From Candidatus Saccharimonadota bacterium (GTDB lineage Bacteria; Patescibacteriota; Saccharimonadia; Saccharimonadales; SLHW01), in NCBI GenBank assembly GCA_024635455.1, contig JAGXIU010000002.1, positions 236,309 to 300,308 of the forward strand: 64,000 nt of DNA. The letters are read 5' to 3'. The position numbers and the translations under genes were made by a program. Position 1 is the first letter of the stretch, and the number at the start of each line of letters is the position of its first letter. Shown piece by piece: positions 6,667 to 52,621 of this stretch. A model generated the notes under the pieces. The model saw only the letters and a program-made list of their open reading frames with translations, was not told the DNA's origin and searched no databases.

Positions 6667-6827
6667 GATGCTTCTTTCTTTTTGATTATATTGATCTTAG
6701 AACAGAGTGTTTGGGCTGATAAGGTGGTAAACCACATAGAGCCTCCTAAGCGTTAAGTATAGTATTAATGATACAACTCAACAAGAAATGCTTCGGCTCA
6801 GCTGTAAAGTAAGTTGTCATAATTTTG

Positions 6828-6948: not shown

Positions 6949-6966
6949 TCATACCCCTAATGCCTG

Positions 6967-9282: not shown

Positions 9283-9330
9283 TACCTCTAGTATAGCAGT
9301 CGATAGCGACGGCTGAGCGGTCTTATATGA

Positions 9331-11163: not shown

Positions 11164-11198
11164 TACGTGTCCTTGTAGGGGTATAACACCCCTGTTCA

Positions 11199-11231
11199 TG
11201 AAAAAAGCGCTTATACGATTGAAAAGCGCTT
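11199..11231 (-). terminator. Terminator-like hairpin inside the typA 5' leader (possible attenuator)
   Basis: Two copies of the palindrome AAGCGCTT (11205-11212 and 11224-11231) form an 8-bp stem. On the minus strand a T6 run follows. The hairpin lies between a TATAAT-like box (near 11255) and the typA start. Confidence 0.4.
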
Positions 11232-11369
11232 GCTTCTTATCTAATTTGACTATAATTATAACATATTAATACTTTTTATACTGTAGCCAGTGCGTCAGCT
11301 TGTTTGCGGATTCAGCGTGCATGCTATACTAACAGATGAATACACAGCATAAATAACCAGTGAGGATGT

Positions 11370-12098: not shown

Positions 12099-12102
12099 AC
12101 CC

Positions 12103-12579
12103 ATGAGAATTATTGGTATAGATCCTGGAACTAGTATTCTCGGATTTGGAGTAATCGATAGTGAGGGCCAGAAGAAAACTATGGTTGATGCTGGCGTAAT
12201 CACTACCAGAGCTCATCAGCCACTCGATGAACGATTACTAGAGATATACCAGTGCATTACCCAGATTATAAAAGAGAATAAGCCCGAGGTAATGGTGATA
12301 GAAAAGTTATTTTTTGCACAAAATGTCACCACGGCTATAAGCGTCAGTCATGCGCGTGGTGTTGTTATGTTGGCAGGGAAACAAGCTGACTTGAAGCTAG
12401 TGGAGTTAACTCCACTACAAATAAAGCAATCTCTAACTGGCTACGGTCGAGCCACGAAGAATCAAATACAACAAATGGTGCAGACTATGCTAAAACTTCA
12501 AAGCCTACCCGAGCCGGATGATTGCGCAGATGCCTTAGCTGCTGCCCTGTGCTACGAAGGTGATAAACTAATAGCATGA
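12103..12579 (+). CDS. ruvC: Holliday junction resolvase RuvC
   Basis: MRIIGIDPGT..GFGVI, and DCADALAAAL near the C-terminus. Confidence 0.9.
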   Translation: MRIIGIDPGTSILGFGVIDSEGQKKTMVDAGVITTRAHQPLDERLLEIYQCITQIIKENKPEVMVIEKLFFAQNVTTAISVSHARGVVMLAGKQADLKLVELTPLQIKQSLTGYGRATKNQIQQMVQTMLKLQSLPEPDDCADALAAALCYEGDKLIA

Positions 12580-13157
12580 TAGCAACGTTACGTGGTGTTA
12601 TAGCTGAGATAGAACCAGACCGTGTGGTATTGGAGTGCAGTGGTGTAGGCTACGGATTGATTGTAACTGGTGCCGATCACGGATTATTGCAGTCTGGTAA
12701 AGAGGCTCATGTCTACGTCCATGAACATATTAAAGAAGATGCGCATGATTTATTTGGTTTTTTATCCAAAGACACCAAACGATTATTCGAGCAGCTCTTA
12801 ACAGTAAAAAATGTTGGCCCAAAGGTTGCTATTGCGTTGCTTGATATCGATAAAATAGACGGCGTTCGACAAGCAATTGCCGACGGTAACATAAAAACAT
12901 TACAAACAGCCAAAGGTGTTGGTAAGCGAGCAGCTGAACAAATAGTTGTAGAACTGCGCGATAAAGTTGGGCTTAGCTCAAGTGACTCTGCTGACTCTGT
13001 CGTGTCGCGTGGTGCAGCGAGCCGTCAGCGCAATGACGAGGCATTCCAGGGGCTCGTGGCGCTTGGTTACAGCGATGTCGATGCGCTGGAAGCGCTCGCA
13101 AACATTGATCCTGACTTGTCAGTTGAGCAACGCATAACTCAGGCCTTGAAACGGTAG
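12576..13157 (+). CDS. ruvA: Holliday junction helicase subunit RuvA
   Basis: MIATLRGVI...GVGYGL..., HhH GVGKRAAEQIV. Overlaps ruvC by 4 nt. Confidence 0.9.
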   Translation: MIATLRGVIAEIEPDRVVLECSGVGYGLIVTGADHGLLQSGKEAHVYVHEHIKEDAHDLFGFLSKDTKRLFEQLLTVKNVGPKVAIALLDIDKIDGVRQAIADGNIKTLQTAKGVGKRAAEQIVVELRDKVGLSSSDSADSVVSRGAASRQRNDEAFQGLVALGYSDVDALEALANIDPDLSVEQRITQALKR

Positions 13158-13163
13158 TAGGCT

Positions 13164-14216
13164 ATGGCTATAGATAGAATCGTACAACAAACAGCAGATG
13201 ATCAACCTGATGCAAACGAGGATCAATTCGAGCAAACGCTACGACCTCGAACATTTGACGAGTATATTGGCCAAGATAGGCTCAAGAAGAATTTACGATT
13301 AGCAATTACCGCATCTAAGAAGCGAGAAGAGCCGGTTGATCATGTTCTACTTTATGGTCCACCCGGCTTAGGCAAGACTACTATGGCCAGCGTGATAGCG
13401 AATGAAATGAATGCACAAATTCGAATTACCTCTGGTCCGGCTATAGGGCGGGCGGCTGATTTAGCCAGCTTGCTGACTAATCTACAGGATGGCGATATTT
13501 TATTTATTGATGAAATCCATCGACTTGGACGTAGCGTTGAGGAAGTGCTCTACAGCGCTATGGAGGACTTTAAGCTCGATATTGTGTTGGGCAAGGGGCC
13601 AAGCGCAAAAAGCCTGCGGCTTGATTTGCCGCGCTTTACTATTATTGGCGCCACGACCCGCACCGGTGCACTGGCGGCACCCTTGCGCGATCGGTTTGGT
13701 ATCATGCACCGCCTTGAATTCTACACGCCGGAGGATATACAAAAAATAATAACGCGGTCTGCTCAGATACTCGAGACCGAGATACACGATGCTGCGAGTG
13801 AAATCATCGCTTCTCGAGCGCGATTAACGCCACGTATAGCCAATAGATTACTCAAGCGAGTGCGCGATTATGCAGACGTAAACGGCGACGGTATTATAGA
13901 TACGCCGCTCGCACAAAGCGCCCTCAAGCTACTTGAAATCGATGAAATAGGACTAGACCCAGCTGATAGGCAGCTAATAGACGTCATCATCGACCATCAT
14001 GGCGGTGGCCCGGTCGGCGTAGAAACACTGGCTGCTATCACCGGTGATGAGCGCTCAACAATTGAAGATTTTCTGGAGCCATATTTATTACAGATTGGCT
14101 TTCTGGAGCGTACTCCGCGCGGTAGAAAAGTCACCCCACGAGCCTATAAGCATGTAGGAAAAAAACCTAAACATCAGGCATCTGACTCACCTAGTCCACA
14201 AGAAGAGCTTCTCTAG
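13164..14216 (+). CDS. ruvB: Holliday junction helicase RuvB
   Basis: [31 protein letters not shown]. Confidence 0.95.
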
Positions 14217-14223
14217 CGCTCTA

Positions 14224-14523
14224 TTACTCTGAAAATGGGTTATCTCTTGCTTCTTTAAACAGTGCGTCAACTTGTACGTTCTGATCCTGTAGTTCTTTGA
14301 TTTTATCAACTGCCGCTTGGTCAATCTCTGGCCGATTGACTGACTCCAGCTGCTCTAAAACGGTAAGTTCATCGGCCTCAACTTGCGTCAAGCTGTTTAT
14401 ATGGAGCACCAAATATCCATAGACCATTAGGTTAGCGATGATAAACATGAAGGGCAAAAAGCGCACCAGTGTTTTCGCGAATCTCGATAGGTAATTAGTA
14501 ATGTTTTTAATATCTATATTCAT
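14224..14523 (-). CDS. Small membrane protein, last gene of the pilM-N-O block
   Basis: 99 aa with one TM segment. Its start overlaps the upstream gene's stop by 4 nt. Confidence 0.5.
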   Translation of the reverse strand: MNIDIKNITNYLSRFAKTLVRFLPFMFIIANLMVYGYLVLHINSLTQVEADELTVLEQLESVNRPEIDQAAVDKIKELQDQNVQVDALFKEARDNPFSE

Positions 14524-15110
14524 GGCTTTATGTACACTACCAGATTAACAGTAAAGGTCAGTAGACTGCGATTATCTTCATCTGGAATAATAGAGATGGA
14601 CTGGACTTGGGACGTACGACGATTTTGTTCGAGCTTATTTAGAAATGAGATAAAACGATCGTACGTCGTCGGTGATTCAGATACTCCGATTGACATCTCT
14701 AACTCAAGTAATCCCGGTATGCCTTGTACTGGAGTTGCTTGAGTTATGACAGACTGTGAACTGGCTTGGGCTGCGCCGAGGTTAGAGCTAGGGAACGATA
14801 CAGTTGATACTGTTACGCCACTATCTTGAGCGACGGCAATAACTTCACGGACTGTACGCGCCTGATCTTTCTCTTGCGGAATAATCCGCGTTGCTAGTTG
14901 TTCTAGTCCACTGTATTCCTCTATATCTGCTTTTGCTTGTATGAGCGATAGCTCTTGCGCTTCTGTTACTTCTTGTTGCACTTTCGCCGTATGCAGCTCT
15001 TCCGAGCTTTCCTCGAGCATCGTGACGCCAAAATATACTGAGGCGATAAGCCCGAGCCCGAGCAATAAGGCCAGTCCAAAGAACAGCTGGTATAGTTGTT
15101 TGCCACTCAT
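14520..15110 (-). CDS. pilO: PilO-like type IV pilus assembly protein
   Basis: N-terminal TM plus coiled region, in the position after pilN. Overlapping stops and starts. Confidence 0.55.
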   Translation of the reverse strand: MSGKQLYQLFFGLALLLGLGLIASVYFGVTMLEESSEELHTAKVQQEVTEAQELSLIQAKADIEEYSGLEQLATRIIPQEKDQARTVREVIAVAQDSGVTVSTVSFPSSNLGAAQASSQSVITQATPVQGIPGLLELEMSIGVSESPTTYDRFISFLNKLEQNRRTSQVQSISIIPDEDNRSLLTFTVNLVVYIKP

Positions 15111-15718
15111 GAGGAATTTCCTTCAATGTTTGGTTGCGCTTCTGGTATCAGCAAGAATTGACTGTTTTCGCCAAATAAAGCACGAATAGTTATTTGGCAT
15201 GGATATGTCGGACTATCTTCACCCTGCTCGCAACGAACACTGATGATATCTGAAGATGCAAATATTTCATTTGCAGGATCCTCTAAGTTTACCTGCACTT
15301 GGGTGGCTGTATTGTAATCCGTTGCATCAGCCAGCAGATCTATACCGCCCTCAGTTTCGTTAATTGTCAGACCTGACAAGACCGCCCCTGAAGGTATAGC
15401 GCTACCGACCTGCCTGATAAGATCAGAGAAGAGAACTTGCTGAGATAGTACCTGGACAACCAGATTAAGCGAGTCGCTAATCTCTTGCACCCTCGTCTTG
15501 GTTTCTTGTAGGTCTTGTTGCGCTAAACCTTGTTCGGTCTGATCAATATCCTGTAAGAGTTGATCAGTTGCCCGCGTTATATAAAACTGCCCAAACATAA
15601 CAACAGCGAATACACCAATGATCGCTACAGTAAGTGCAGCCAGCCATTTCAGTAACAGGGTATTACGTTTTGCGTAAAAAATTGTCTGTTTTGTCTCAGG
15701 TGGGAGTAAGTTGATCAT
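15107..15718 (-). CDS. pilN: PilN-like type IV pilus assembly protein
   Basis: MINLLPPE start followed by a TM segment, typical of PilN. Confidence 0.65.
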   Translation of the reverse strand: MINLLPPETKQTIFYAKRNTLLLKWLAALTVAIIGVFAVVMFGQFYITRATDQLLQDIDQTEQGLAQQDLQETKTRVQEISDSLNLVVQVLSQQVLFSDLIRQVGSAIPSGAVLSGLTINETEGGIDLLADATDYNTATQVQVNLEDPANEIFASSDIISVRCEQGEDSPTYPCQITIRALFGENSQFLLIPEAQPNIEGNSS

Positions 15719-16779
15719 GAAAGTATCTCCTGTGAGCGCAAGAGAGCAAGCCCTGCAACAGTGACATACATAGACTTCTCGATACTATTTGGTGGTTGCA
15801 GTTTGCCAAACTGTAATGATTGCCACGGATCACACATGCGTACCGGTAAACGCAGGAGGTTGGTCATGTGCTCTGATAGCCCGGGCATGTTAGCGCCACC
15901 ACCTAGTGTCACAACTTGGCCTATCTTACCCTCAACAGTTTTGCGCTCCTCATAGTAGCGAATCATTCGTTTGATTTCTTTTATGAGTTGATCGAGGATT
16001 GGCTTGAGCGCCTCTGTTATCTCTGCTTGTTTTTTACTAACACCAAGTCCGTACTTTGTTTTTATAATATGTGCTTCTTCTTGGGTAACATTTAATTTCT
16101 TAGAGATTAGATCGGAAAAGTTGTCACCACCACCGGATACGGTTCCAGTTACAACCAACGTTTTATCAAATATAGTAATGTCCGAGGACAGTGAGCCGAA
16201 ATCAATCAGAATACTTGGCTCATCGCTTTGCTCGGCATGTAAGAATAATCGCCCCGAAGCATTAATGGTTGTCTCTACCGCAATTGGCTCTAAGCCGAGT
16301 AGCTTCATAGTGGTCATGTATGAGTCGACAATCTTCTTTGGTACGGCAGTGGCGAGCACTTCAGTCCCTTTGTCAGTCTGGGTTACTACACCGTAATCCA
16401 TATACAGTTGTTCGAGTGGAACAGGTATATATTGTTCGGCTTCAAACCGAACTGCTTCATCAAGCTCTTTTTGGTTATCAATTTTTGGGAATTGAATGGT
16501 TCTGTTAAAGGTTTTAGATGCTGGTATAGCGACTGCAACTCGTCGAGTGGTGATTTTGCCAACAATGTCGTTCTCGAACATTTTATGGACGGCTTCCGCA
16601 ATTTTCTCTGGTTCGGTTATGACGCCGTCCTCCATTGCTGATTTATCAAAGCTCGTAACACCGTAGCCAATCACCTGACGATTTCCGCTGGTGTTATTCA
16701 TCTGCATAACTTTAATCGAGTTAAAGCCGATGTCTATGCCGAAAACTGGTTTGTCGTGGTAAAATTTTGTATCATTCAT
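15715..16779 (-). CDS. pilM: Type IV pilus assembly ATPase-fold protein PilM
   Basis: Actin-like fold pattern (FGIDIGFNSIKV ... DFGSLSSDI ... TLGGGANMPGL). Confidence 0.8.
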   Translation of the reverse strand: MNDTKFYHDKPVFGIDIGFNSIKVMQMNNTSGNRQVIGYGVTSFDKSAMEDGVITEPEKIAEAVHKMFENDIVGKITTRRVAVAIPASKTFNRTIQFPKIDNQKELDEAVRFEAEQYIPVPLEQLYMDYGVVTQTDKGTEVLATAVPKKIVDSYMTTMKLLGLEPIAVETTINASGRLFLHAEQSDEPSILIDFGSLSSDITIFDKTLVVTGTVSGGGDNFSDLISKKLNVTQEEAHIIKTKYGLGVSKKQAEITEALKPILDQLIKEIKRMIRYYEERKTVEGKIGQVVTLGGGANMPGLSEHMTNLLRLPVRMCDPWQSLQFGKLQPPNSIEKSMYVTVAGLALLRSQEILS

Positions 16780-30654: not shown

Positions 30655-30688
30655 AAACCCGACAGACTATAGTGTGTCGGGTTTATTA
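30655..30688 (+). terminator. Intrinsic terminator after ymdB
   Basis: AAACCCGACA GACTATAGTG TGTCGGGTTT ATT. Confidence 0.75.
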
Positions 30689-30726
30689 CCCCTGTTTCAT
30701 ATGATTTTAGGCTATGTTTTATTACA

Positions 30727-30738
30727 GGGTGAGAGGAC
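30727..30738 (-). repeat. Third, short remnant of the tRNA-Pro 3' end
   Basis: GGGTGAGAGGAC matches 37099-37110 and 32449-32460. Decayed module-like sequence follows at 30739-30900. Confidence 0.4.
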
Positions 30739-31147
30739 AGCGCTCTGGCTTCCGCGCAGGGCTATATCCACTCCTGCGTTACACAGTCGTTTCACAAACC
30801 TCCGCTCGACAGTGCTCGCTTACGAGGTTCTTGCACCCTAACAGCGACCAAGCAAAAACCCCCAGGGCGGCTTACTGGTATCCAGAAGCATAGATGCAAG
30901 CTAGTAACCGCTAGTTGCAGAGGTACCGCTAATGATGACAGGGATTTCATTATAGCCCCCAATGATGAGGACTTGATAGCTCTTGTAGATGTCGTTAAGA
31001 ACAAGCATGCTGGCAAAAGCTTAAATTTGTTGCGTAAACGCTTTAATGAGCTAACACTTTAGAAAATGAAAACACCCTTGAGTTTTTCATGGGTGTAGTG
31101 CTTTTTAATTCTATAAGCTAAAGTTTTTTGAGCTAGTTAGTAGTTGG

Positions 31148-31696
31148 CTATTGCTGTTCAGGAATAGCTGCGCTAATCCAGCCAAGAAGCTCGTCTACTT
31201 CTTGAGGAGGAAGAGCCTCGCCAATGTTTTGCCTATTTAATTCAGCAGCACGCTCCACTGCTCCAAGAGCAGTGGAGGTAAGTGCGTCACCAAGTAGTTC
31301 TTCGGCCCTACGAAGCAACTGTTCATCCTCCTTTTCTCCAGGCATAGGTTCATAATCTCCTGGGTAGTCTATAACTTGACGCTTCATAACTACACCGTCT
31401 CTGGCGATAAAGTCAGTCTGAATATGGCCCCCGCTTTCAAACACTGTAACTCTATGCCCACTAAAAGTAGACCACTTATCCAAAGCTTCAGTTGCTTCTT
31501 CAGGAATAGGTCGCTCCAAGTAAACTCTTGAAGCTGTTGGGCAGTGGCTAAGCGTGCCAGCAGGTATAAGTGCAAGGCTTTCTTCGTGGTCGCGTACAAT
31601 ACCTCCTCTGTTGGAAGTGCCTTCTGTGAACTTGTTGTCTATAGCAAGGGTAAGCATCTCTGCTGTATTTGGCTGTGTAATTTCTGGGTTTGTCAT
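31148..31696 (-). CDS. Hypothetical protein (in the older tRNA-Pro-linked remnant)
   Basis: Start taken at MTNPEITQ. No motif recognised. Confidence 0.45.
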   Translation of the reverse strand: MTNPEITQPNTAEMLTLAIDNKFTEGTSNRGGIVRDHEESLALIPAGTLSHCPTASRVYLERPIPEEATEALDKWSTFSGHRVTVFESGGHIQTDFIARDGVVMKRQVIDYPGDYEPMPGEKEDEQLLRRAEELLGDALTSTALGAVERAAELNRQNIGEALPPQEVDELLGWISAAIPEQQ

Positions 31697-32442
31697 GGGT
31701 AATACATTAACATAATAAGCATGTAATGTCAATAATTCTTATGATACGACCACACTATGCCAGATAATATAAACGGTAATATTTTTAAGCTACCAGAGAG
31801 CGAATACAAGGTATCTGAACTGACTGACCACTACGCAAGTATTACAAAAGGCAGCCTGAGAATACTTCCTAAAGAAAAAACGTCGCTATGTGATGTACGG
31901 CAAAATACTGTCTAAAAGTATTAGAATGAAACACCTAACTTCTCATATAGCGTGGGCTATTCAACACCTGACATAGAACACGGATAAAGCCTACAAAAAG
32001 TACATCGAGTGACCAGAGGGGTAACTATCTGCTGATAAAGACAGAGCAAACCGTAAATTAGCAGAGGCTAAGCGTTAACTTACAAAACAGGAGGGCAATT
32101 ATTCTAAGTATCAGAACTCACAGCGAGACGGCCCTATAACATAAAAGAAACATCATAAGGGCAAATTAGAACATCATCAAGAGCTGATTAACAGTGGTGA
32201 GCCGAGTGTGAAACAGGCTAAGAATGAGGTCGAGATGCTTAGTGGGTCATTGCCCTCGCAGAAACAATTTGTTGAACATATCGTTCGTATCTGAAAACAG
32301 TCAGCAATACTAAGGATTTGATTGAGGAGGGGTTAGTCTACAAAGAAGTAGTGTTGAACCTCTGTCCTGTAGACGATGTCATCTCTGTTATAAAGCTAAA
32401 TCCACCATACAATTTGATGGTGAATTTAGACAAAGTTCCTCT

Positions 32443-32460
32443 TGGCCGGGGTGAGAGGAC
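32443..32460 (-). repeat. Direct repeat of the tRNA-Pro 3' end (att-like)
   Basis: TGGCCGGGGTGAGAGGAC versus TGGTCGGGGTGAGAGGAC at 37093-37110 (17 of 18 identical). Confidence 0.85.
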
Positions 32461-32605
32461 AATTTAGGCCGGGCACTATTCAGTGCTCGGCTTCATCTCC
32501 GCTCAAACTTTCTCGATGCTAGCATCTGCGAGAGTTTTCGCTCCACCGAACCGTCCGACCTCTGCAACACTTCGTGTTGCGGTCGGAGGTTCAAGCCACT
32601 CTCAA
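32461..32605 (-). repeat. T-arm-mimic structured module, copy Pro(UGG)
   Basis: Read on the minus strand: TGGCTTGAACCTCCGACC (antisense of the tRNA-Pro T-arm), GCAACAC GAAG GTGTTGC, GGTCGGACGGTTCGG, TGGAGCGA, TCTCGCAGATGCTAGCATCGAGAAAGT. The last box is near-identical to 52352-52378. Confidence 0.6.
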
Positions 32606-33113
32606 GCAATGAAAAAGCCGCCCCTGACAGGACGGCTCTTTCATTGGTCGAGTAGGAGCGATTACGCTTGAACAGGTTGAGCCACTACTGTTATCGCTTA
32701 AAGATTACTGGTGTAGAAGCTCAAATATGCGTGAAATGTCTAGCTTACTCAAACATCCACGAGTTGCATCAACAGTAGCAGAATATGAGCTTTAACAGGG
32801 GTAGATTAGCACTTTCCTATTGATAAACGTGATGCGACTTGAACAAGATAACAATACTAATTGGACATTAAGTCCATTTCATGTCGTACATTGTATGTTG
32901 TACGAACCGTGCTAACAGGGGTAGTGGTATATTTTTAGCAACAAAATGGCTTGTCAAGTGCTTGTGTTATTTTCGCCACCCCTGTTTTTTACATATTATA
33001 CAATGATGGTTTCGATTGCAGTGTCAGCTCCATTGTACTAGTCAATTATTCTTACTCGCTGTAATATTTTGATAGCATTTAGCGTTACTATACAATTAAA
33101 GTAAAGATTTCCT

Positions 33114-33584
33114 ATGAATAACGATAAACCACACTTTTCAATTGGCGATATAGATAAAGAATCAATTATTAAACGTGCAGAGAGAAAAGTCTCCCGAACA
33201 AACACTGATCCTTATTATCAAAATGTACAGGTTGAAGTAATGATTGAACGTGAGATGGAGCAAGTCTTTAAGAAGGATTTTATGGGTTCAACAACCGACT
33301 TGTTGCGTTTAGGTGATTCTGGTGCTGCGATTGGCTATTTAGTTTTTGTCTTCATTCTGCTGATTACATCTGACAACGGCTTGAGCTTGGTGCAGTTCTT
33401 TTTCTTAGTAGTAGTTACCATTATGTTGTTAATCGCAGTACATGGCACAATGAAGGAGCGGATCGAGTCTGCTTTTAAATCAGGAGCACATAGTGATTGG
33501 CATCTATATGAGCCTGAATACCGAGATGCGTTATGGGAAATAAGGCAACGCAAAGAAAATACTAGACCTGAACGAAACCACTAA
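33114..33584 (+). CDS. Hypothetical membrane protein (island cargo)
   Basis: 156 aa with two central TM segments. Confidence 0.5.
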   Translation: MNNDKPHFSIGDIDKESIIKRAERKVSRTNTDPYYQNVQVEVMIEREMEQVFKKDFMGSTTDLLRLGDSGAAIGYLVFVFILLITSDNGLSLVQFFFLVVVTIMLLIAVHGTMKERIESAFKSGAHSDWHLYEPEYRDALWEIRQRKENTRPERNH

Positions 33585-33661
33585 GCTACAAGCATAGAGA
33601 TAGTTATTCCATATAAAAAGAGACGACATGTAGCCGTCTCTTTAGTTATTGTTGCTGTTTT

Positions 33662-34231
33662 TTATTTAACCTGAACGATAGCACGGTCCGCATTAAATCC
33701 ATTCGGTTTCCAGATAACATACTGGTGTCCTTCTTCGACTGGTACTTCAAAAACAATCTGTCCTGATGCTTTTCCGCCAGCAACCATGTCTCCTGAGCTT
33801 AATGAGTTATCCACGGTAGCAAATGCTCCATCAAGAACTTGTCCTTCCGCAGTCTGAATACGAAAATCGAACACATTGTATGGCTTAGTTTCGTTACTGG
33901 TGTTCTCTAGTGCAACATCAGCAATAACATAGGTCTTTCCACTTCCAGCTTGTTCAAACTCACTTATAGTAGTCTTATAAACTACGTTAGAAAGAGTCAT
34001 CTTAACTCCGTCAACTGTAGCCGCTTCGCTTGGCAATACTTCTACGTCTTTGGGTTGCTTGTCTGCACGGTCGTCAAACCTGTATGTCTTCTCTCCACTA
34101 GCAGTGTTATTTTCGCCACCACTATTGTTTCCTGAATTATCACTACCACCACCTGCTGCACTTGCAATTACTGCAATCACAATAAAAGCCAATATGACTG
34201 TCAAAATTTTATGTTTCTTAAACCAACTCAC
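33662..34231 (-). CDS. DUF4352-like secreted/anchored protein (island cargo)
   Basis: N-terminal TM, G/S/N-rich linker, then YVIADVALENTSNE...FDFRIQ...ASGQIVFEVP, typical of DUF4352. Confidence 0.6.
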   Translation of the reverse strand: MSWFKKHKILTVILAFIVIAVIASAAGGGSDNSGNNSGGENNTASGEKTYRFDDRADKQPKDVEVLPSEAATVDGVKMTLSNVVYKTTISEFEQAGSGKTYVIADVALENTSNETKPYNVFDFRIQTAEGQVLDGAFATVDNSLSSGDMVAGGKASGQIVFEVPVEEGHQYVIWKPNGFNADRAIVQVK

Positions 34232-34361
34232 TATAAATCTCCTTATTAGTATTAACTATAATATACATTTAATTTCCTTACCTGTAAATATACCCTAAAT
34301 GATGCAAATAATAAACAGTTGGTTTATGTAACTATCTGTTTATTATTTCTACGCTTAGTAC

Positions 34362-34748
34362 ATGACCGAACAGAAACTAATGAAAGCCTTTGGTAAACGT
34401 GTTGCTGAGGTCCGAAAAAACAAAGGCATTACTCAACAACAACTAGCACATGATATTGGTATGAGTGTTGTCGCAATCGCATACATTGAAACTGGTAAAC
34501 GTTGGGCAAGGCTAGGAACACTCAATAAAATAGCCAAACGCCTAAAAGTCGATATTAGCGATTTATTTACAGGCATATACATAACTCAACTTTTGTCCAA
34601 AAACCTCGCTAAACGCCTCTCTGTACGTCACAGAGGGCTTAATTGTCTTTCATTAAATGTATCTGTAATGTGCAGAGCAAGACCCTACGATTTTTTTATC
34701 CAATTTTTTACTTATCAACGCCATTTATTAGCTTGTACAACATGCTGA
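34362..34748 (+). CDS. XRE-family HTH regulator with an atypical long C-terminal tail
   Basis: FGKRVAEVRKNKGITQQQLAHDIGMSVVAIAYIETGKR...LNKIAKRLKVDISDLF. The last ~55 aa are low quality and Cys/Leu-rich. Confidence 0.6.
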   Translation: MTEQKLMKAFGKRVAEVRKNKGITQQQLAHDIGMSVVAIAYIETGKRWARLGTLNKIAKRLKVDISDLFTGIYITQLLSKNLAKRLSVRHRGLNCLSLNVSVMCRARPYDFFIQFFTYQRHLLACTTC

Positions 34749-34796
34749 TTTCTTACATCAAAATAATTAAAAACCTAACGAAAACATGGGTGTTTT

Positions 34797-35030
34797 CTAG
34801 GTAAGTGTAAAGAAACTGAACACTACCTTATTTTGGTTTTCTTTTGCCGCAAGCATCTTCTCCCTAAACACTTCATTATTACGCATATAGTAGAAGAAAG
34901 TGGTACGACTTATGCCTGTCCAGCGACAAGCCTCGCTTATTGTGCTGTTGTGTTGTATTGCATCTTGAAGCCTTAGCATGGTTGTATAGGTGACTTTGGG
35001 CTTTCGTCCTATAGCTTTTCTTATTTCCAT
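34797..35030 (-). CDS. Small HTH protein (resolvase-HTH / terminase-small-subunit-like); possible directionality factor
   Basis: 77 aa containing ISEACRWTGISRTTFFYYM. Divergent from the recombinase promoter. Confidence 0.45.
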   Translation of the reverse strand: MEIRKAIGRKPKVTYTTMLRLQDAIQHNSTISEACRWTGISRTTFFYYMRNNEVFREKMLAAKENQNKVVFSFFTLT

Positions 35031-35098
35031 TTTACTCCTTTGTTTTCTGCGTTACCCCTGTTCTAATTATACAGAAGTAGCATTACCATAAAATATAC

Positions 35099-35127
35099 TT
35101 GACAATGCTTATGGTAAAGAGTATAAT
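35099..35127 (+). promoter_or_regulatory. Consensus sigma-70 type promoter facing the recombinase gene
   Basis: TTGACA (35099-35104), a 17-nt spacer, TATAAT (35122-35127). The 8-bp outer stem AGACCCCA/TGGGGTCT (35137-35184) follows directly. Confidence 0.6.
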
Positions 35128-35512
35128 TAGTAGTATAGACCCCACCAAGAAATCCTTTTCAGGAAGGTTTTTGACATGGGGTCTTAACTTATTTTAAGAC
35201 TTCATAAAAACCTTAGCGAACTAATAACACCTATCGCACTGAGAAAACTCATGGGGGTGAAGAACTTAAAACACTTCACTGGTCAAAGAAAGAACCAGTG
35301 TGGACTACGATGCAAAACTCGATGTTACATCAAATCAAAATACACAAAACAAAGATAGTGACAGCTTATTTAAGTTGTTGGAGTTGCTTAAAAAGGCAGA
35401 TATTAAAAACAATCTAGCCGACTTAAATGAAACAACTATGAGCGACAATAACGGTGGTCGTATAGAGCTTTAATCCTCGCACTCGTACTTTGACTAAGCT
35501 ACAATATATAGT

Positions 35513-37114
35513 ATGTATGAAGACGAAGAAGAACCACAAATAGATATAACAACGCTTCGGTATGTATTGTATGCACGAAAATCTACTGATGATCCAAAGC
35601 GTCAGGTGCGTTCTATTGATGACCAGATTGATGAATGTGAAGTCTTAGCAAGACGTAACGGAATGCGTATTGTCAAAAAGATTACAGAGGAAAAATCAGC
35701 AAGAAAAGCTGGAAATCGACCTAAGTTCGACCAGATGATTCAAGACATTGAGGCAGGTAAATATGATGGGGTTGTTGCTTGGAACCCTGATAGGCTCGCT
35801 CGGAATATGACAGAGGGCAGTCGTATACTGAGCCTTATTGATGCAGGTCGTATTGTTGACCTAAAGTTCGCAACACACCACTTTGTTAACGACTCAAGTG
35901 GACAGATGCTCCTCGGCATATCTTTCGTCATGGCTGATTACTACTCAAGAAGACTTTCAGAAAACGTCAATAGAGGCGTTAAGAAAGGCTTGAAAGAGGG
36001 TAAGTCATCAGGAACTCCAAAGCACGGCTATATTAGACATGAAGACGGTATTTATCGACCAGATGATGAAGATGGCTGCAAGAACTTTGAACTAATTTGT
36101 GATGCATGGAAGATGCGTAAAAAAGGTGATTCACTCAAAACGATTGCAAATTACATGAACAAAAATGGTTACGCACGTATTTATAAAGAAAACGCTGAAA
36201 AAGCAGGTCAAAAAGTAAATATGAGCGACAAGATACTAAGTAATACTGTATTTCCAGACCCCTTTTATTATGGAATCCTAATTCAGACAGATAAGCCTGT
36301 AGACCTTAGAGAGATTGATGAATACAATTTTAAGCCAGCTACCGATGAGGACACATACAATTACATACAGCAGATGACAGGTCGCTCTACTAAAAACACC
36401 AAACGTAGTGTATTCAAACCTTTAGTGGAAATGGTCTATTGTGCGTACTGCAATTCAAAGATGTACCCACAAACACCACAGTCCTCAAACAAGACAAGAA
36501 AATTATCATATAGGTGTGACAATGCACACTGTCAGCGTAAGAATAAAGAGCTTAAACTTAGCCAGTCAGTTAGAGGAATAGTCATATTTAAGTTCATGTA
36601 CGAAATGCTTGAGAATATAGAAGTCAATGAGAGCGATTACGAGAAGTTACGCAATAAGCTAATAGTAAGCAACCAAGCCAATGCACACAAACAGGCTATA
36701 GAGATTCACTCGCTTCAAGGTTCACTTAAGAGTATCGAGAAAGACATCAAGGATCGTAGCTTGAAGATTATTACATTAGACAAGAATAGTCCTATCTACA
36801 GAACTAATGAAACTCATATCAACGAACAGGGTGTCAGAGCTAACGAACTACGTAATGAAATTGATAAACTTACAGAACAGCGAACAAATCCAGACGAAGA
36901 CATTATGAGCTTTGAGGAGTTCTTGAACGTAATAAAAAACGCCAGCAAACACCTTAAAGTTGCTGACGTTGTACTAAAAGACCACATTGCTCGTTTAATC
37001 TACTTGAACGTACATGTAGATAGCGAAAATGTGGTCTCCTACCAGATGAAGGAGCCATTTAAGACTTACTTCAAATCGTATAAAATCTTTACTGGTCGGG
37101 GTGAGAGGACTTGA
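35513..37114 (+). CDS. Large serine recombinase (integrase)
   Basis: Resolvase domain YARKSTDD...SIDDQ...DRLAR, recombinase domain, zinc ribbon CAYCNSKM...YRCDNAHCQ and a long coiled coil. The stop TGA at 37112-37114 lies inside the tRNA-Pro T-loop. Confidence 0.9.
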   Translation: MYEDEEEPQIDITTLRYVLYARKSTDDPKRQVRSIDDQIDECEVLARRNGMRIVKKITEEKSARKAGNRPKFDQMIQDIEAGKYDGVVAWNPDRLARNMTEGSRILSLIDAGRIVDLKFATHHFVNDSSGQMLLGISFVMADYYSRRLSENVNRGVKKGLKEGKSSGTPKHGYIRHEDGIYRPDDEDGCKNFELICDAWKMRKKGDSLKTIANYMNKNGYARIYKENAEKAGQKVNMSDKILSNTVFPDPFYYGILIQTDKPVDLREIDEYNFKPATDEDTYNYIQQMTGRSTKNTKRSVFKPLVEMVYCAYCNSKMYPQTPQSSNKTRKLSYRCDNAHCQRKNKELKLSQSVRGIVIFKFMYEMLENIEVNESDYEKLRNKLIVSNQANAHKQAIEIHSLQGSLKSIEKDIKDRSLKIITLDKNSPIYRTNETHINEQGVRANELRNEIDKLTEQRTNPDEDIMSFEEFLNVIKNASKHLKVADVVLKDHIARLIYLNVHVDSENVVSYQMKEPFKTYFKSYKIFTGRGERT

Positions 37115-37169
37115 ACCTCCGACCTCACGGTCCCAAACCGCGCGCGCTAGCCAACTGCGCCACACCCCG
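37093..37169 (-). tRNA. tRNA-Pro (anticodon UGG), CCA encoded
   Basis: CGGGGTG TG GCGC AGTTGGCTA GCGC G CGCGG TTTGGGA CCGTG AGGTC GGAGG TTCAAGT CCTCT CACCCCG A CCA. Confidence 0.93.
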
Positions 37170-40663: not shown

Positions 40664-40750
40664 GCTGTCTCCCTATTTTTTGCTAGTTTATTCACATGAT
40701 AGTATAACAAAAACTAGAGTTGATACACACTATCGGGTAGAGCAACCGGA

Positions 40751-42091
40751 TTAGTTATCGGAAGACGTGAGATACACGGTGCCATTTGTGCTGACATGCG
40801 CGGCAGGCACTGCATATAATCGCTTGTCGCGCAGAAGATAAAGGCTTCGTTCTTCTTCGCATTCGTCCGGGCAGAATGTGGCTATAAATGTACCGATATC
40901 CTCAAACGTACCTTCGTGGTAACTCAAGTAGTACGAGCCGCTTCTACGTAAGAGTGTGTTTCCTGGGGCAGTCCATCGAGGTCTTTGGACTAGTTCGTAT
41001 ACACCGGTGAGCCGATCGTCACCATCAGCGACGTTAAGCATGGTGAGTATGGAGCCGTCCACTCCGGGGGCAAACCATTGGATGTTTGGTTTCGAGTATC
41101 TGTTGCTATTCTCAGCTTCATTAGTTTTACTGTAGCCAAATACTGGCCAGCTGTGATCTTCGTCAATCTCGTATACTCGAAGATACGTATGTTCGTTGGT
41201 GGAGTAATCCGGCATAGTTGCTCGGTAATAGACCGATCCATCTCGTACGAACATATCATATGGGGCGTGTGTATCGGCTTCTGGTAGACGTGATTTAACC
41301 AAAACTTCTTCACCATTACTGATGCGATTGACATACAGGTGATCCCGCATACCACCTTCTCCGCTGGTGAACCAATACAGTTCGTCTCGTGTGGTATCTG
41401 TATCAACGATTTGAATTCCACCCATGGTTTCTCTATGCGTAAACAGCTCTGTCATTGATTGTTCGCCAATATTGTAGCGAGACACGGTAAATTTATAACT
41501 TTCAAAGTATCCCTGGCTTTCGGTTGTTTCGCGGTTTCGCACGAGAAAGCCGCTACTGTCGCTCAGCCATACCAGTTGGTTGTTTGTGGTTGGTTCTGCG
41601 GCTGGAGGAATAACTTCCTTAAAATCCAGCGGCTCAGCAGTCTCTGCAAGATATACTGCTTCACCATCGATTTTTGCCACGTAGCGACCATCTTCTGACA
41701 CCTTGAAGTCTCGCAAGCTTGCCGAATCATCGTAGGTCTCAAAAGAGTTGGTTTCTTGGTTAAATAAATCTACGACGGCGTGAGTGCCACCTTCCGGAGG
41801 AGTAGTGTAGACCACTCGGTATAACTGGCTCCCGTCAGTAACATCAAGGTTAAGTGGCTCTGTACTTTCTAGGGGTTCTTCTTTTTGGGGCGTTGCAGAT
41901 TGCTGTTCTCCTGTATCGCCGAGGTTATCGTTCTGTGTATACAGCCAGAAACCTAGACCAGCTACGACTACTACCAGCAGTCCGTATATAAGATTTTTGC
42001 TTCGTTTTATCTTTTGAGTGGTAGGCTTTTTCGCCTCATCAATGCTGTTCTTGTCCTGTTGTGTCGTTGGTCTTTTTAAAAAAAACTTCAC
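40751..42091 (-). CDS. Hypothetical anchored extracytoplasmic protein
   Basis: 446 aa with one N-terminal TM (LIYGLLVVVVAGLGFWLY). The rest is beta-rich. No motif recognised. Confidence 0.5.
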   Translation of the reverse strand: MKFFLKRPTTQQDKNSIDEAKKPTTQKIKRSKNLIYGLLVVVVAGLGFWLYTQNDNLGDTGEQQSATPQKEEPLESTEPLNLDVTDGSQLYRVVYTTPPEGGTHAVVDLFNQETNSFETYDDSASLRDFKVSEDGRYVAKIDGEAVYLAETAEPLDFKEVIPPAAEPTTNNQLVWLSDSSGFLVRNRETTESQGYFESYKFTVSRYNIGEQSMTELFTHRETMGGIQIVDTDTTRDELYWFTSGEGGMRDHLYVNRISNGEEVLVKSRLPEADTHAPYDMFVRDGSVYYRATMPDYSTNEHTYLRVYEIDEDHSWPVFGYSKTNEAENSNRYSKPNIQWFAPGVDGSILTMLNVADGDDRLTGVYELVQRPRWTAPGNTLLRRSGSYYLSYHEGTFEDIGTFIATFCPDECEEERSLYLLRDKRLYAVPAAHVSTNGTVYLTSSDN

Positions 42092-42257
42092 GAGTTCCTG
42101 CCTTTTATCATTAGCTATAGCGTTATATGTATAATATTATAACAATAAAAACATAAAAAAGCAAATCTGTGCTGTACAATACTCGAGTTATAAAGACTAA
42201 AGACCGCTGTCGTTATAAGTGGCCGGTTTAGAGCCAAGGCTCTATGAAATAACCTTG

Positions 42258-43091
42258 CTACATCTTTCGTCGGCGGACAAGTGAGCCGCCGGCAGCAACC
42301 ATGGTGCTACCGCCAAGGGCAAGAGCCAATGCACCGATACCTGTAGCTGGCAATTCTTTTTGAGGCTCGGCCGACCCTACAGGTATATCCACCTCATCTT
42401 CTTCCTCGACAGTAGCATCTGTTTCGGTTGGTTGTTCCTCGCGCATTTCTGGCTCAGGTTCAGCTTCTTCTGGAGATTCGACGGGCTCTTCTGGGGTTTC
42501 AATTGGAGATTCTGGTGCGGTTTCTGCTTTGCATTTCGTAAAGTCAACCTTACTACTGTTCAGCTCTGCCAGCAGTTGGTTTTTGCCGGTATCAACCCAC
42601 TCATAGCGGGCAATTTGCGGAAGGCTAGTAACGGTTACTGACTTGCTTTCACCGGGCTCAAGATTTAGCTGGTAGATGACATCAGGGTTATATTCTGGCG
42701 AGTCGGCGTCTGGTCCGCCATGTGGGGCAATCCTGCTCTGAAGACCGCTCTCATCTAGGTCATTACTGTCGTCGGAAGCTTTAACGGTGAATTCCCACGT
42801 GTCCTCAGTGACGCATCTCTTGACTACATCTATAGATGTACCCGGACGTATCTCCGCTTCCAGGGGTGCTTCTTCGGGCATTTCAACTTTTAAAGTTTCA
42901 GCTTGGTTCTCTTTGTCCGGGCCGTCAGTTTGCGCATTTATACTTTCAGTGACAGGGCTTTCTTTTTCTAGCGTGGGAGCTTCCGCGGCACCAAGCAGGC
43001 TTAGAGTAGCTACGCCAACTACGAGTGATTTGTATCTACGTTGCGGCGATAGGTCATAGTGTGATGCTGGATTATTTTCTGACTTCTCCAT
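42258..43091 (-). CDS. LPXTG-anchored surface protein
   Basis: The C-terminus is LPATG, a hydrophobic stretch, then RRRKM. Acidic P/E-rich stalk. Start chosen at the ATG after GAGGA. Confidence 0.8.
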   Translation of the reverse strand: MEKSENNPASHYDLSPQRRYKSLVVGVATLSLLGAAEAPTLEKESPVTESINAQTDGPDKENQAETLKVEMPEEAPLEAEIRPGTSIDVVKRCVTEDTWEFTVKASDDSNDLDESGLQSRIAPHGGPDADSPEYNPDVIYQLNLEPGESKSVTVTSLPQIARYEWVDTGKNQLLAELNSSKVDFTKCKAETAPESPIETPEEPVESPEEAEPEPEMREEQPTETDATVEEEDEVDIPVGSAEPQKELPATGIGALALALGGSTMVAAGGSLVRRRKM

Positions 43092-43211
43092 TATATTTGT
43101 CCTCAAGCCTACTTCATTACTTTGTATGTGAAACTACCATATATCCAAAAAATTAATACATTAGATCATTATCTTGAGGAGATCCGAATAGTCTTTAAGA
43201 AGTAAATTTTA

Positions 43212-43399: not shown

Positions 43400-43678
43400 A
43401 TATTGTTATCAGAAAACAGGGGTAATTATATCGTGTTTTATGCTCTGCCGCAACAGCCCTATAGAAGTCATAAAATCACTAGAGAACGTACGCGCAGGAT
43501 ATGTTTCTGAAGTGCAAATATGTCGATAGCTTGGACTGGATGACATTCTTAATCTACTAATGATGCTCAAAGCAAGTTTCTGTGCGTGATGCTCAATCCC
43601 CAAACTTGCCTGAGGGGTTGAACCTCGCCCACGCGAGCACCCATAGAAAAAGTCGGCCACAAGTGCCGACTTTTTCTA

Positions 43679-43695
43679 TGGTACCCCGGGAGGGA
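43679..43695 (-). repeat. Direct repeat of the tRNA-Arg(UCU) 3' end
   Basis: TGGTACCCCGGGAGGGA is identical to 43862-43878. It is followed (minus sense) by the hairpin CCATAGAAAAAGTCGGC...GCCGACTTTTTCTATGG. Confidence 0.9.
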
Positions 43696-43823
43696 TGACA
43701 TCGTTGCTTCTGCGCTGTTACTCGGAGCGAGCTCCTGCGTGACAGCTTGTATCACCGAACCACCCGACTACTATCTTTGCCTTCGGCAAATCCAGGTCGG
43801 TGAACCGAATCCTACTCGACACT
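43696..43823 (-). repeat. T-arm-mimic structured module, copy Arg(UCU)
   Basis: The minus strand reads GGATTCGGTTCACCGACC, TTTGCC GAA GGCAAA, GTCGGGTGGTTCGG, then CACGCAGGAGCTCGCTCCGAGTAAC. Confidence 0.6.
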
Positions 43824-43861
43824 CCAAATAAAAAGCCGGTCATTTAGACCGGTTTTTTATT
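43824..43861 (-). terminator. Terminator hairpin starting at the tRNA-Arg CCA
   Basis: CCAAATAAAAAACCGGTC TAAAT GACCGGCTTTTTATTTGG (minus sense). Confidence 0.8.
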
Positions 43862-52238: not shown

Positions 52239-52274
52239 ATTCATGAAGCCACCTTGTGTGGCTTTTTGAATTGG

Positions 52275-52401
52275 ATAGACGAGCTCCGAACCTGAGACAC
52301 AGATTCGCCACCTGGCGAAGATGTAAGTCGAGTGGTTCGTTCGTAAGGATCTCTCGCAGAAGCTTGCTTCGAGAAAGTGACGCAACGTGCCGCGGGCAGC
52401 C
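52275..52401 (+). repeat. T-arm-mimic structured module, copy Lys(CUU)-1
   Basis: CTCCGAACCTGAGACAC, TTCGCC ACCT GGCGAA, GTCGAGTGGTTCG, then TCTCGCAGAAGCTTGCTTCGAGAAAGT (52352-52378). Confidence 0.6.
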
Positions 52402-52419
52402 CCCTCCTGGCCCTCCAAT
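52402..52419 (+). repeat. Direct repeat 1 of the tRNA-Lys(CUU) 3' end
   Basis: CCCTCCTGGCCCTCCAAT is identical to 52223-52240. The hairpin AAAACGCCCACC...GGTGGGCGTTTT follows. Confidence 0.9.
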
Positions 52420-52462
52420 ATAAAACGCCCACCTTTTCGTTACCGGTGGGCGTTTTATATTG

Positions 52463-52599
52463 ATTGTCTTGAATGGCTCGACTCCTCGAAACGCCAAAAA
52501 GGTGTCGTGGGTGAAGATTTCCAGTGGCAATCCGCAAGAGAATCTTCACCTGACAGCAGTGCTGTCACGGCGGAAGTTCTGGGCCCGCAGAATGTGGGC
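52463..52599 (+). repeat. T-arm-mimic structured module, copy Lys(CUU)-2 (more diverged)
   Basis: AATGGCTCGACTCCTCGAAACGCC ... GGTGTCGTGGGTGAAG, plus further hairpins (GAAGATT..AATCTTC, CTGACAGCA..TGCTGTCA). Confidence 0.5.
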
Positions 52600-52621
52600 G
52601 AGTCCCTCCTGGCCCTCCAAT
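52600..52621 (+). repeat. Direct repeat 2 of the tRNA-Lys(CUU) 3' end
   Basis: GAGTCCCTCCTGGCCCTCCAAT is identical to 52219-52240 (22 nt). Confidence 0.9.

Follow-up and report, generated by a model that had tools for sequence, protein, structure and literature searches.

Introduction

Transfer RNA (tRNA) genes are commonly regarded as integration sites of tyrosine integrases and not of serine integrases, and to our knowledge the characterised large serine recombinases target protein-coding or intergenic sites. In fuselloviruses of the SSV1 type, the attachment site of the element (attP) is located in the integrase gene; integration at a tRNA gene splits this gene to the two ends of the provirus, and excision restores it. 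Broussard et al. reportedly described in 2013 an integration-dependent immunity in the mycobacteriophages Brujita, Charlie and BPs, in which attP lies inside a coding sequence, and Lyras and Rood are said to have found in 2000 that the circle junction of Tn4451/Tn4453 forms a promoter for the large resolvase TnpX. The subject of this study is a genomic island in a stretch of 64,000 nt from contig JAGXIU010000002.1 of a Candidatus Saccharimonadota bacterium (host: Saccharimonadales bacterium); this whole stretch is called the window in the following. The island (32645-37098) is most probably an integrated small integrative element, which possesses a serine integrase, an attP inside the gene of this enzyme and a chromosomal attachment site (attB) at the end of a tRNA gene, and whose integrase gene was split by integration. 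We assign a probability of roughly 0.8 to this interpretation.

The recombinase gene and its detached 3' end

The island is integrated at a gene for tRNA-Pro(UGG), which was detected with ARAGORN and Rfam on the minus strand (37093-37169) and bears attB according to the junction alignments. The gene of the large serine recombinase lies on the plus strand (35513-37114; Pfam Resolvase, E-value 1.9e-27) and, in its truncated, integrated form, codes for 533 amino acids (aa). Its open reading frame (ORF) ends with ...TGRGERT, and the stop codon TGA (37112-37114) is located within the T-loop of tRNA-Pro; the last seven codons and the TGA represent antisense tRNA-Pro. A first-pass annotation of the window had already reported an integrated island with a large serine recombinase at tRNA-Pro, and also this C-terminus with its stop codon in the T-loop. 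Both observations were confirmed. The apparent splitting of the gene by integration had not been recognised.

The last 6 nt of tRNA-Pro are CGACCA, which read TGGTCG on the plus strand (37093-37098) and form the crossover core. A second TGGTCG is present at 32645-32650, and the conserved segment that follows this left core (AGTAGGAGCGATTAnnCTTGAAC...) is in the recombinase frame once both junctions are joined. Joining position 37098 to this segment yields an ORF of 576 aa with the C-terminus ...KIFTGR|VGAITLEQVEPLLLSLKDYWCRSSNMREMSSLLKHPRVASTVAEYEL*. According to this in-frame reconstruction, the detached 3' end of the recombinase gene (32646-32795, plus strand) comprises G-R from the core, the tail VGAITLEQVEPLLLSLKDYWCRSSNMREMSSLLKHPRVASTVAEYEL and the stop codon TAA. 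About 47 C-terminal codons are detached and are present, intact and in frame, at 32651-32795 with the end AEYEL*; the chromosomal copy reads 21 nt into the antisense tRNA and halts at the TGA of the T-loop. Two C-termini are thus predicted, ...AEYEL for the free form of 576 aa and ...GRGERT for the integrated form of 533 aa.

Uninterrupted homologs of 570-577 aa that carry this tail occur in the databases (P0015, P0031, P0036, P0047, P0050, P0070 and P0120) and end with ...YEL or ...YEY. A hidden Markov model (HMM) built from their tails matched the piece in the window with an E-value of 3.6e-20. The reading frame obtained by joining the junctions, together with the uninterrupted homologs possessing the same tail, argues that attP is located inside the recombinase reading frame and that integration splits the recombinase gene itself. 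An exact look-up of the reconstructed 576-aa protein in the protein collection gave no match.

Pieces coding for the tail were found upstream of the recombinase gene and on the same strand at 11 or more loci. The tail profile detected them in the window and in L001, L002, L003/L047 and L005, and weaker matches were obtained for L012, L014, L016, L020, L024 and L035. In 15 tails, the residues G4, A5, E9, L14, W22, Y47 and E48 are invariant, and W22, Y47 and E48 are located past the first ten tail codons, which overlap the P' arm of attP (see below). All tails keep an open frame up to a terminal Y-E-(L/Y). Pairwise comparison of tail codons 11-25 revealed 136 synonymous and 146 non-synonymous differences. 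The invariant residues, the open frames and these substitution counts suggest that the tail is maintained as a protein and not only as a DNA site.

Island boundaries and attachment sites

The island comprises 4,448 bp and is bounded by the 6-bp core TGGTCG at 32645-32650 and 37093-37098. Only this hexamer is found alike in the two junctions, in attB as reconstructed, at the empty site L103 and in the circular attP sites (described below), and this comparison also defines the right-hand junction at 37093-37098. For the left end, loci encoding recombinase homologs were fetched. The homology of the window with the islands L001, L002, L003 and L005 starts exactly at TGGTCG 32645-32650, which represents the true left boundary.

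In the first-pass annotation, an 18-nt repeat had been considered as the boundary. The repeat itself exists: TGGTCGGGGTGAGAGGAC (37093-37110) is repeated as TGGCCGGGGTGAGAGGAC at 32443-32460 with 17 of 18 identical positions. These are the only two occurrences in the window within four mismatches, and a third, partial copy is present at 30721-30738. As a boundary the repeat is not tenable, since the homology of the related islands and the real circular attP start at 32645-32650. It lies 185 bp outside the actual island boundary, and the motif TTGAAC, which is present beside the real site, is missing from the displaced copy at 32443. Neither of the two left boundaries proposed earlier (32461 or about 32690) is the actual one. 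It had also been assumed that the element supplies the functional 3' end of the tRNA, i.e. T-arm and acceptor; at most, it contributes the last 6 nt, which are identical in attP and attB. The characteristics of tRNA islands of tyrosine integrases were not observed, as the long repeat is not at the boundary and a Phage_integrase domain was detected neither in the island nor in 30 other large ORFs of the window that were scanned. Island finders which rely on direct repeats of tRNA sequences would set the boundary of this island at the wrong repeat.

The P arm of attP (37052-37092, plus strand) lies inside the recombinase coding sequence, contains TTCAA at 37070-37074 and could be aligned to L007, L009 and L010. 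The P' arm (32651-32690, plus strand) corresponds to the first tail codons, contains TTGAAC at 32668-32673 and is kept in all islands and circles examined. In attP, G3 of the core is the midpoint between TTCAA (37070-37074) and TTGAA (32668-32672). The motif TTGAAC is separated from the core by 17 nt in the P' arm and by 12 nt in the tRNA arm (37111-37116). With regard to the site architecture of serine integrases (short sites with a small common centre, arms of imperfect dyad symmetry and a motif spacing that differs between attP and attB), a 6-bp core, symmetric TTCAA/TTGAA motifs and TTGAAC at +17 in attP versus +12 in attB were observed, together with a downstream attB arm that varies from locus to locus. 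In the structural work on LI integrase and attP by Rutherford et al. (2013), a shift of the zinc-ribbon motif by 5 bp from attB to attP is reported to be characteristic of this class.

Across the recombinase family, element and target have no more than TGGT(C/G)G in common. A relative whose recombinase is 85% identical to that of the window (L105, 2600-5951) resides in a different tRNA (3' end ...GCCCACCA). Its core is TGGTGG, the core of its attP is changed to match, and the GGACTTGAACC spacing is the same; the contig ends 8 nt after the stop codon, so that the tRNA species cannot be named. L105 appears to represent a recent change of target, and with it the common core shrinks to TGGT (= ACCA). 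From the symmetry of attP about G3 and from this retargeted relative, we infer that crossover occurs at GG or GT, corresponding to CC or AC of the tRNA end, most likely within the ACCA end.

Free circles, empty sites and occupied sites

Circular assemblies of 4.7-5.7 kb carry the uninterrupted gene of 570-577 aa. Two contigs of 5,039 bp from different sequencing runs (L007 and L008, encoding P0015) each show a terminal overlap of 30 nt and represent one permuted circle of 5,009 bp. The contigs encoding P0047 and P0036 (L009 and L010) are likewise circular, and the gene is intact in all circles. Joining the two junctions of the window element gives an attP that can be aligned, base by base, to the circular attP of L007, L009 and L010. 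In addition, the circles contain large unannotated ORFs (433-573 aa) which are not present in the island of the window, and L010 codes for a repressor of the LexA/S24 type. Family scans for replication, capsid and conjugation functions gave no match in any circle.

The first-pass annotation had recommended a comparison with genomes that lack the island, and such a comparison was possible. Via the neighbouring DUF1295 gene, whose product is 89% identical, the locus L103 was found. Its gap between YmdB and DUF1295 is only 420 bp and contains tRNA-Pro followed by hairpin, module and 18-nt repeat without the island; 229 bp (1426-1654) correspond to 6,405 bp in the window (30688-37092). L103 is most probably the empty counterpart of the window's own locus. 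Further contigs of the same strain (L106, L108 and L109) were obtained with a scan for the module motif. L109 is empty, and L106/L108 hold an island of 5,113 bp between hairpin and tRNA, exactly at TGGTCG, so that an empty and a filled orthologous tRNA-Pro site are available from one strain. The flanks of L103/L109 and L106/L108 are 99.9-100% identical. The related recombinase of L106/L108 reads ...GRGERTRTSDLTVPNRAR into the tRNA, and its own tail codons are located at the far end of the island. In L106, this recombinase is present as two overlapping ORFs of 282 and 259 aa (4263-5878), owing to a frameshift or a sequencing error.

At L005, two different serine-recombinase islands are arranged in tandem at one tRNA-Pro (8280-16762). 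The protein P0016 of this locus (577 aa) is a chimera, in which the first recombinase ORF ends in the recombinase tail of the second island; this indicates that the second integration used the hybrid junction as target.

For the element of the window, the predicted attP junction reads ...AAAATCTTTACTGGTCGAGTAGGAGCGATTACGC..., i.e. AAAATCTTTAC-TGGTCG-AGTAGGAGCGATTACGCTTGAAC, and the predicted restored attB reads GGCTCTTTCAT-TGGTCG-GGGTGAGAGGACTTGAAC.

The recombinase and its family

The enzyme appears to be a true large serine recombinase. PF00239 matched residues 18-164 with an E-value of 1.9e-27, and the residues R22, S24, D93, R94 and R97 are invariant in alignments of 21 and of 66 homologs. 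Pfam matches to Recombinase and Zn_ribbon_recom were weak and under their cut-offs; the zinc ribbon contains four invariant Cys residues. An AlphaFold model of the full-length homolog P0015 (mean predicted local distance difference test score, pLDDT, 82.8) shows a catalytic domain, helix E, a recombinase domain (173-290), a zinc ribbon and a coiled coil (371-454). Using Foldseek, about 550 columns were aligned to serine integrase-att complexes (E-value 1e-17), namely 9dxd, 9y66, Bxb1 (9iu2), PhiC31 (9rah) and LI (4kis). According to the model, the canonical domains (catalytic, recombinase, zinc ribbon and coiled coil) are all located before the crossover. A docking position for the tail was sought by structure prediction and was discarded, because the tail came out at low confidence.

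In total, 812 recombinase homologs were found, and a scan of one genome per species yielded 80 loci, mostly from Patescibacteria. Of the loci fetched, about 45 have a recombinase ORF whose end is located within the 3' end of a convergent tRNA; about 20 of these tRNAs are specific for Pro, and the others for Leu, Met, Ser, Ile, Lys, Gln, Val, Asp, Gly and His. The elements of the family measure 4.4-7.5 kb. Among the 121 closest homologs, 86 possess a short C-terminus encoded by the tRNA (GRGDRT, GRGERT and similar), 14 read on through the tRNA, seven carry the full tail and 14 are fragments or tandem chimeras. Close relatives were not found in IMG/VR (best identity ≤32%), and recombinases in annotated phage and plasmid records showed at most 27% identity. 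One related island (L002) contains a tyrosine integrase gene (Phage_integrase, 8655-9575), which immediately precedes the small ORF and the gene of the serine recombinase.

The use of a tRNA gene by a serine recombinase, which had been pointed out as unusual in the first-pass annotation, is indeed rare: in a survey of 297 serine-integrase islands, 14 were located at t(m)RNA genes, a use which the survey terms previously unreported (PMC7192596). Our literature searches retrieved nothing on a serine recombinase with attP inside its own gene, and nothing specific on serine recombinases at tRNA genes in Patescibacteria or on this clade.

The module units downstream of the tRNA genes

The sequences to the left of the island do not belong to it. 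A terminator hairpin (32606-32644, minus strand; terminator-like match) was situated directly after tRNA-Pro before the island inserted, as the order hairpin, TGGTCG, tRNA at the empty sites L103/L109 indicates. It is followed by a gene-less unit (32443-32605, minus strand), which consists of the module (32461-32605) and the displaced tRNA 3' end (32443-32460) and an equivalent of which occurs without the island in L103/L109. Farther out, a strain-specific segment (30721-32442, minus strand) contains the partial repeat (30721-30738), module-like sequence and an ORF of 194 aa (31148-31732). The earlier description of the module as a mimic of the T-arm holds, since an 18-nt inverted T-arm copy (32578-32595) is 94% complementary to 37110-37127, and the hairpin reported to precede it in minus sense is supported by the terminator-like match. 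The module folds strongly on both strands in comparison to shuffled sequences (z -4.7 and -6.0).

In the first-pass annotation, the module had been regarded as part of the island and as possibly mobilised by the recombinase. Module, hairpin and 18-nt repeat are found at tRNA-Pro without the island in L103/L109, and the islands L002 and L003 occur without module and without such a repeat. Co-occurrence is not evident either: repeats of the module type were found at 4 of 42 occupied tRNAs versus 14 of 153 tRNAs overall. In addition, the repeats of the modules measure 14-22 nt and begin at differing positions of the T-loop, and the modules lack both attP arms. The presence at empty sites, the absence in L002 and L003, the missing enrichment and the form of the repeats suggest that hairpin, module and 18-nt repeat are an older unit, a separate kind of insert which was already located downstream of tRNA-Pro.

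Several other interpretations of the module were considered. It might be the P arm of a tyrosine or serine recombinase crossing over in the T-loop, a reading for which the mimic of the core site next to the repeat is missing, or the decayed left end of a serine-recombinase island, which is opposed by the lack of the 5-nt offset and of any resemblance to the sequence that codes for the tail. A single strand folded into a site, as in integron attC or CTX, does not fit with two arms that remain adjacent after integration. For a bridge-RNA-like guide the transposase is not present, and a primer-binding site of the retroviral type is at odds with the repeat length of 14-22 nt and the lack of a reverse transcriptase. 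Among the 30 large ORFs scanned, neither a tyrosine integrase nor a transposase of the IS110 type that might stand behind the modules was found, and no homolog of the L002 tyrosine integrase is present in the window. Among these 30 ORFs no recombinase is linked to the units, and no link of the units to the serine recombinase was found. Rfam searches with the modules at permissive E-values gave sub-threshold noise (best hit TLS-PK4, 19.8 bits versus a cut-off of 80).

Equivalent units, some with a gene inside, are located in the window at tRNA-Lys(UUU), tRNA-Lys(CUU) (two units) and tRNA-Arg(UCU). Arrays of such units, either gene-less or small gene cassettes, occur at 5535-6952, 52239-52620, about 43600-43861 and 30721-32644, and at the end of each unit the 3' end of the cognate tRNA is repeated over 14-22 nt. 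In tRNA orientation, the order is tRNA 3' end copy, bidirectional terminator hairpin, optional cargo, T-arm of the cognate tRNA in antisense, an apical hairpin that is conserved (AGATTCGCC-N4-GGCGAAGAT), an imperfect sense T-arm copy (GGTTCGGTG) and two more hairpins. The arrays differ between strains with 89% protein identity. Similar units of other Patescibacteria follow tRNA-Gln, Ser, Leu and Cys at L014 (16557-16700), L028 (about 4140-4293), L043 (about 4490-4645 and 5405-5534) and L068 (about 2815-2966); they consist of a repeat of the tRNA 3' end and a structured spacer, with a repeat spacing of 126-151 nt. The two units of L043 share GAATAGGGGTCGCGAA...TTTGTGACCGA just before the repeat.

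Proposed mechanism and alternative explanations

In the proposed mechanism, the recombinase would join attP in the 3' part of its own gene with attB at the 3' terminus of the tRNA gene, and strand exchange would take place within the shared TGGTCG (CGACCA of tRNA-Pro). The tRNA sequence would remain unchanged by the insertion, and only trailer and terminator would be displaced. The free circle would code for the 576-aa protein with the conserved 47-aa tail. In the integrated state a protein of 533 aa would be formed, whose tail is swapped for G-E-R-T from the antisense tRNA, with the tail codons 4.4 kb away; excision would rebuild the full gene. Since tRNA-Pro loses its terminator, its transcription would run antisense into the recombinase gene. 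The copy in the window is probably still mobile, and the two protein forms presumably differ in activity or regulation.

The model of the first-pass annotation, in which an island extends from 32443 to the tRNA, supplies T-arm and acceptor 3' end, possesses the module as recombination module of its far end and mobilises gene-less modules and cassettes in trans, is highly improbable. The 17/18 repeat is real and flanks the region, the recombinase is the sole site-specific one among the island genes and the 30 other large ORFs scanned, and the island adjoins modules in the window and in L001. All these observations are outweighed by the start of island homology and real attP at 32645 instead of 32443, by L103/L109, which keep module, hairpin and repeat without the island, and by L002 and L003, whose islands have no modules. 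The repeat is not enriched at occupied tRNAs (4/42 versus 14/153), repeats of 14-22 nt with a variable T-loop start do not match the 4-6 bp core of the family, and the modules are devoid of both attP arms. Another unlikely explanation is that the split is functionally meaningless: attP would overlap the end of the gene for compactness, the tail would be dispensable, and its conservation would reflect constraint on the DNA of the P' arm. The first eight or so tail codons (VGAINLEQ) do coincide with the P' arm including TTGAAC, all canonical domains are located upstream of the crossover, and the tail prediction is of low confidence and mostly disordered. The conservation runs, however, 60-140 nt past any plausible arm of 25 bp; the 15 tails, which measure 44-52 aa, all possess W22 and the terminal Y-E-(L/Y), although the recombinases are only about 45% identical; the frame is open to the terminal motif in every tail; and synonymous changes are plentiful in tail codons 11-25.

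It is doubtful that the copy in the window is a fixed, immobile remnant, i.e. an island that is domesticated or in decay. Neither a circle nor an empty site of exactly this element was detected, its cargo is minimal, its XRE ORF has an odd, low-complexity-looking C-terminal half, and the recombinase of the related island L106 appears frameshifted; yet its recombinase ORF, tail ORF, small upstream ORF and two attP arms are all intact and have closely similar counterparts in the circular relatives, and the species is so rare in the databases (1-2 contigs) that this absence of evidence is weak. We also consider it unlikely that the circles are autonomous plasmids or small phages which integrate occasionally, in which case the gene would normally be full-length and its chromosomal copies would represent dead ends. 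The large unannotated ORFs of 433-573 aa, which could be replication genes and are missing from the window island, and the LexA/S24-type repressor of L010 would be in agreement with such a lifestyle. It is contradicted by the integrated state of 100 of the 121 closest homologs, by the lack of detectable replication, capsid and conjugation families in the circles, and by the absence of a close relative from IMG/VR and the annotated phage and plasmid sets (identity ≤32%).

Several observations weigh against the interpretation of the locus as an integrated element with a split serine integrase gene. Circles as well as empty and filled sites were seen for relatives (L007-L010, L103/L109 and L106/L108) and not for the copy in the window, for which neither an excised circle, an attP junction nor an empty site was found; an exact search for the predicted 27-nt attB in JGI metagenome contigs also gave no match. 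The circular assemblies could also reflect tandem identical copies, and L005 demonstrates that tandem arrays, there of two different islands, exist. The apparent frameshift in L106 would imply that some copies are decaying. The crossover dinucleotide is placed by inference, and the downstream (left) attB arm shows no conservation among the loci, an unusual property for the site of a serine integrase. Finally, the model of the tail consists of one amphipathic helix (533-550) followed by disorder with a pLDDT below 52, and no known motif was identified in the tail.

Building on the split gene, it is possible, as a tentative proposal, that the split acts as a directionality or state switch. The 576-aa enzyme made by the circle would integrate, and the 533-aa form would be inactive or excision-competent, possibly together with the product of the small upstream ORF and possibly damped by antisense read-through from the tRNA. 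The clade might hop between tRNAs across the Candidate Phyla Radiation, since the features of the target (ACCA end and T-loop at fixed spacing) are generic.

Further genes of the island and its surroundings

Directly upstream of the recombinase gene lies a small ORF of 57 aa (35300-35473, plus strand), for which seven orthologs from islands and circles were aligned. It is kept in all islands and circles examined and has the C-terminus PLAKLNETTISDNNGGRIEL (...LNETT.SDNNGGRIEL); no Pfam family matched. Orthologs are located at 9819-9977 in L001, 9757-9960 in L002 and 9767-9958 in L003, and in the circles at 2690-2932 (L007), 1185-1349 (L009) and 480-656 (L010). Its product, the only candidate for a recombination directionality factor, might be such a factor or a regulator. 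Both this protein and the recombinase tail contain an L-E-x-L-I/L-D helix and end with (I/Y)-E-L. The tail was also considered as a paralog or a mimic of the small protein, an idea that was rejected at an hhalign probability of 0.2%.

The remaining genes of the island encode a helix-turn-helix protein of 77 aa (34797-35030, minus strand; weak HTH_28/HTH_29 matches and a PHROG match to a small-terminase-like HTH, 4.6e-08), an XRE-type regulator (34362-34748, plus strand) with HTH_3 at residues 15-68 (Pfam 3e-14), a DUF4352 protein with an N-terminal membrane anchor as cargo (33662-34231, minus strand; Pfam 5.1e-16, phrog_806 2.1e-18) and, also as cargo, a membrane protein of 156 aa (33114-33584, plus strand), an ORF to which the Pfam and PHROG scans assigned no family. 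In these scans, no structural or conjugation genes were found among the island genes. The gene content is thus as minimal as described earlier, with Resolvase, HTH_3, a weak HTH, DUF4352 and a membrane ORF. The guanine-plus-cytosine content of the island is 0.379, compared to 0.46 and 0.45 in the flanks.

The 9-mer AACAGGGGT has seven exact copies in the window (32794, 32914, 32978, 35054, 11188, 30688 and 43415), the first four of which are located in intergenic parts of the island. If one mismatch is permitted, the number of matches rises to 22, compared to an expectation of 8.6. The 9-mer possibly serves as a promoter or operator element. Elsewhere in the window, a c-di-GMP-II riboswitch (1900-1985; Rfam 50.2 bits) is located upstream of a gene for a secreted CAP-domain protein (2051-2794). 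About 2.5 kb adjoining the 3' end of tRNA-His (40728-43204) are not present in the related strain (L103, 5235-5296); this region codes for a protein of 446 aa without family and for a protein of 282 aa with an LPXTG anchor, and represents another strain-specific insertion at a tRNA 3' flank.

Significance and comparison with known systems

A large, phylum-wide clade of serine integrases devoted to tRNA 3' termini would require a revision of the common view on the use of tRNA genes. A recombination site inside the gene of the enzyme itself, by which two recombinases would be formed depending on the free or integrated state, is not described for this class in the literature searched. Directionality control is the central open problem for serine integrases, and a natural system with two isoforms would make one form of such control testable. 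Almost no genetic tools exist for Saccharibacteria and other Patescibacteria, in which these elements, as native integration modules that are small and self-contained, could be of use. The compact target looks reprogrammable, because an enzyme with 85% identity resides in a different tRNA.

With the tRNA islands of tyrosine integrases, the island shares the location downstream of a tRNA gene. It differs from them in lacking a tyrosine integrase, in junctions that share only 6 bp and in a long repeat that is not at the boundary; it is the neighbouring module and cassette units that show the signature of tyrosine integrases, namely repeats of 14-22 nt which start in the T-loop.

The serine recombinases of PhiC31, Bxb1, A118/LI, TP901-1 and SPbeta (SprA) possess the same domain order, with catalytic domain, recombinase domain and a zinc ribbon with embedded coiled coil. 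The enzymes of phages and of integrative and conjugative elements likewise use short att sites with few bases common to attP and attB, and have an outer-arm motif about 5 bp further out in attP than in attB, an offset that is reportedly typical (Rutherford et al., 2013). Unlike these enzymes, the clade of the island targets tRNA 3' termini throughout, its attP is putatively located inside the recombinase ORF, and the C-termini would depend on the state of integration. Furthermore, the hosts are Patescibacteria, the elements are small and the identity to phage and plasmid enzymes is low.

The island can also be likened to Tn4451, in which the expression of a serine recombinase differs between the circular and the integrated state, with the junction next to or within the gene. 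In Tn4451 the junction provides a promoter 5' of the gene, whereas the junction of the island lies in the 3' coding region and would alter the protein itself. Like the phages of the Brujita type, the island would have different C-termini in the free and the integrated state and thus a built-in sensor of integration. In these phages, the split gene is that of the repressor, the integrase is a tyrosine integrase, and the removed segment was shown by experiment to be a degradation tag; in the island the recombinase itself appears to be split, and its tail is known from sequence and predicted structure.

The intragenic attP and the partition of the gene at a tRNA are features the island has in common with SSV1-type proviruses. 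The latter employ tyrosine recombinases of archaeal viruses, from which a large essential part is removed, whereas in the island the enzyme is a bacterial serine recombinase from which only an appendage of 45-50 aa past the canonical domains is detached. With respect to gene partition, the island thus seems to work like an SSV1-type provirus, but it is not a member of this group, because its recombinase chemistry is that of a serine and not of a tyrosine recombinase.

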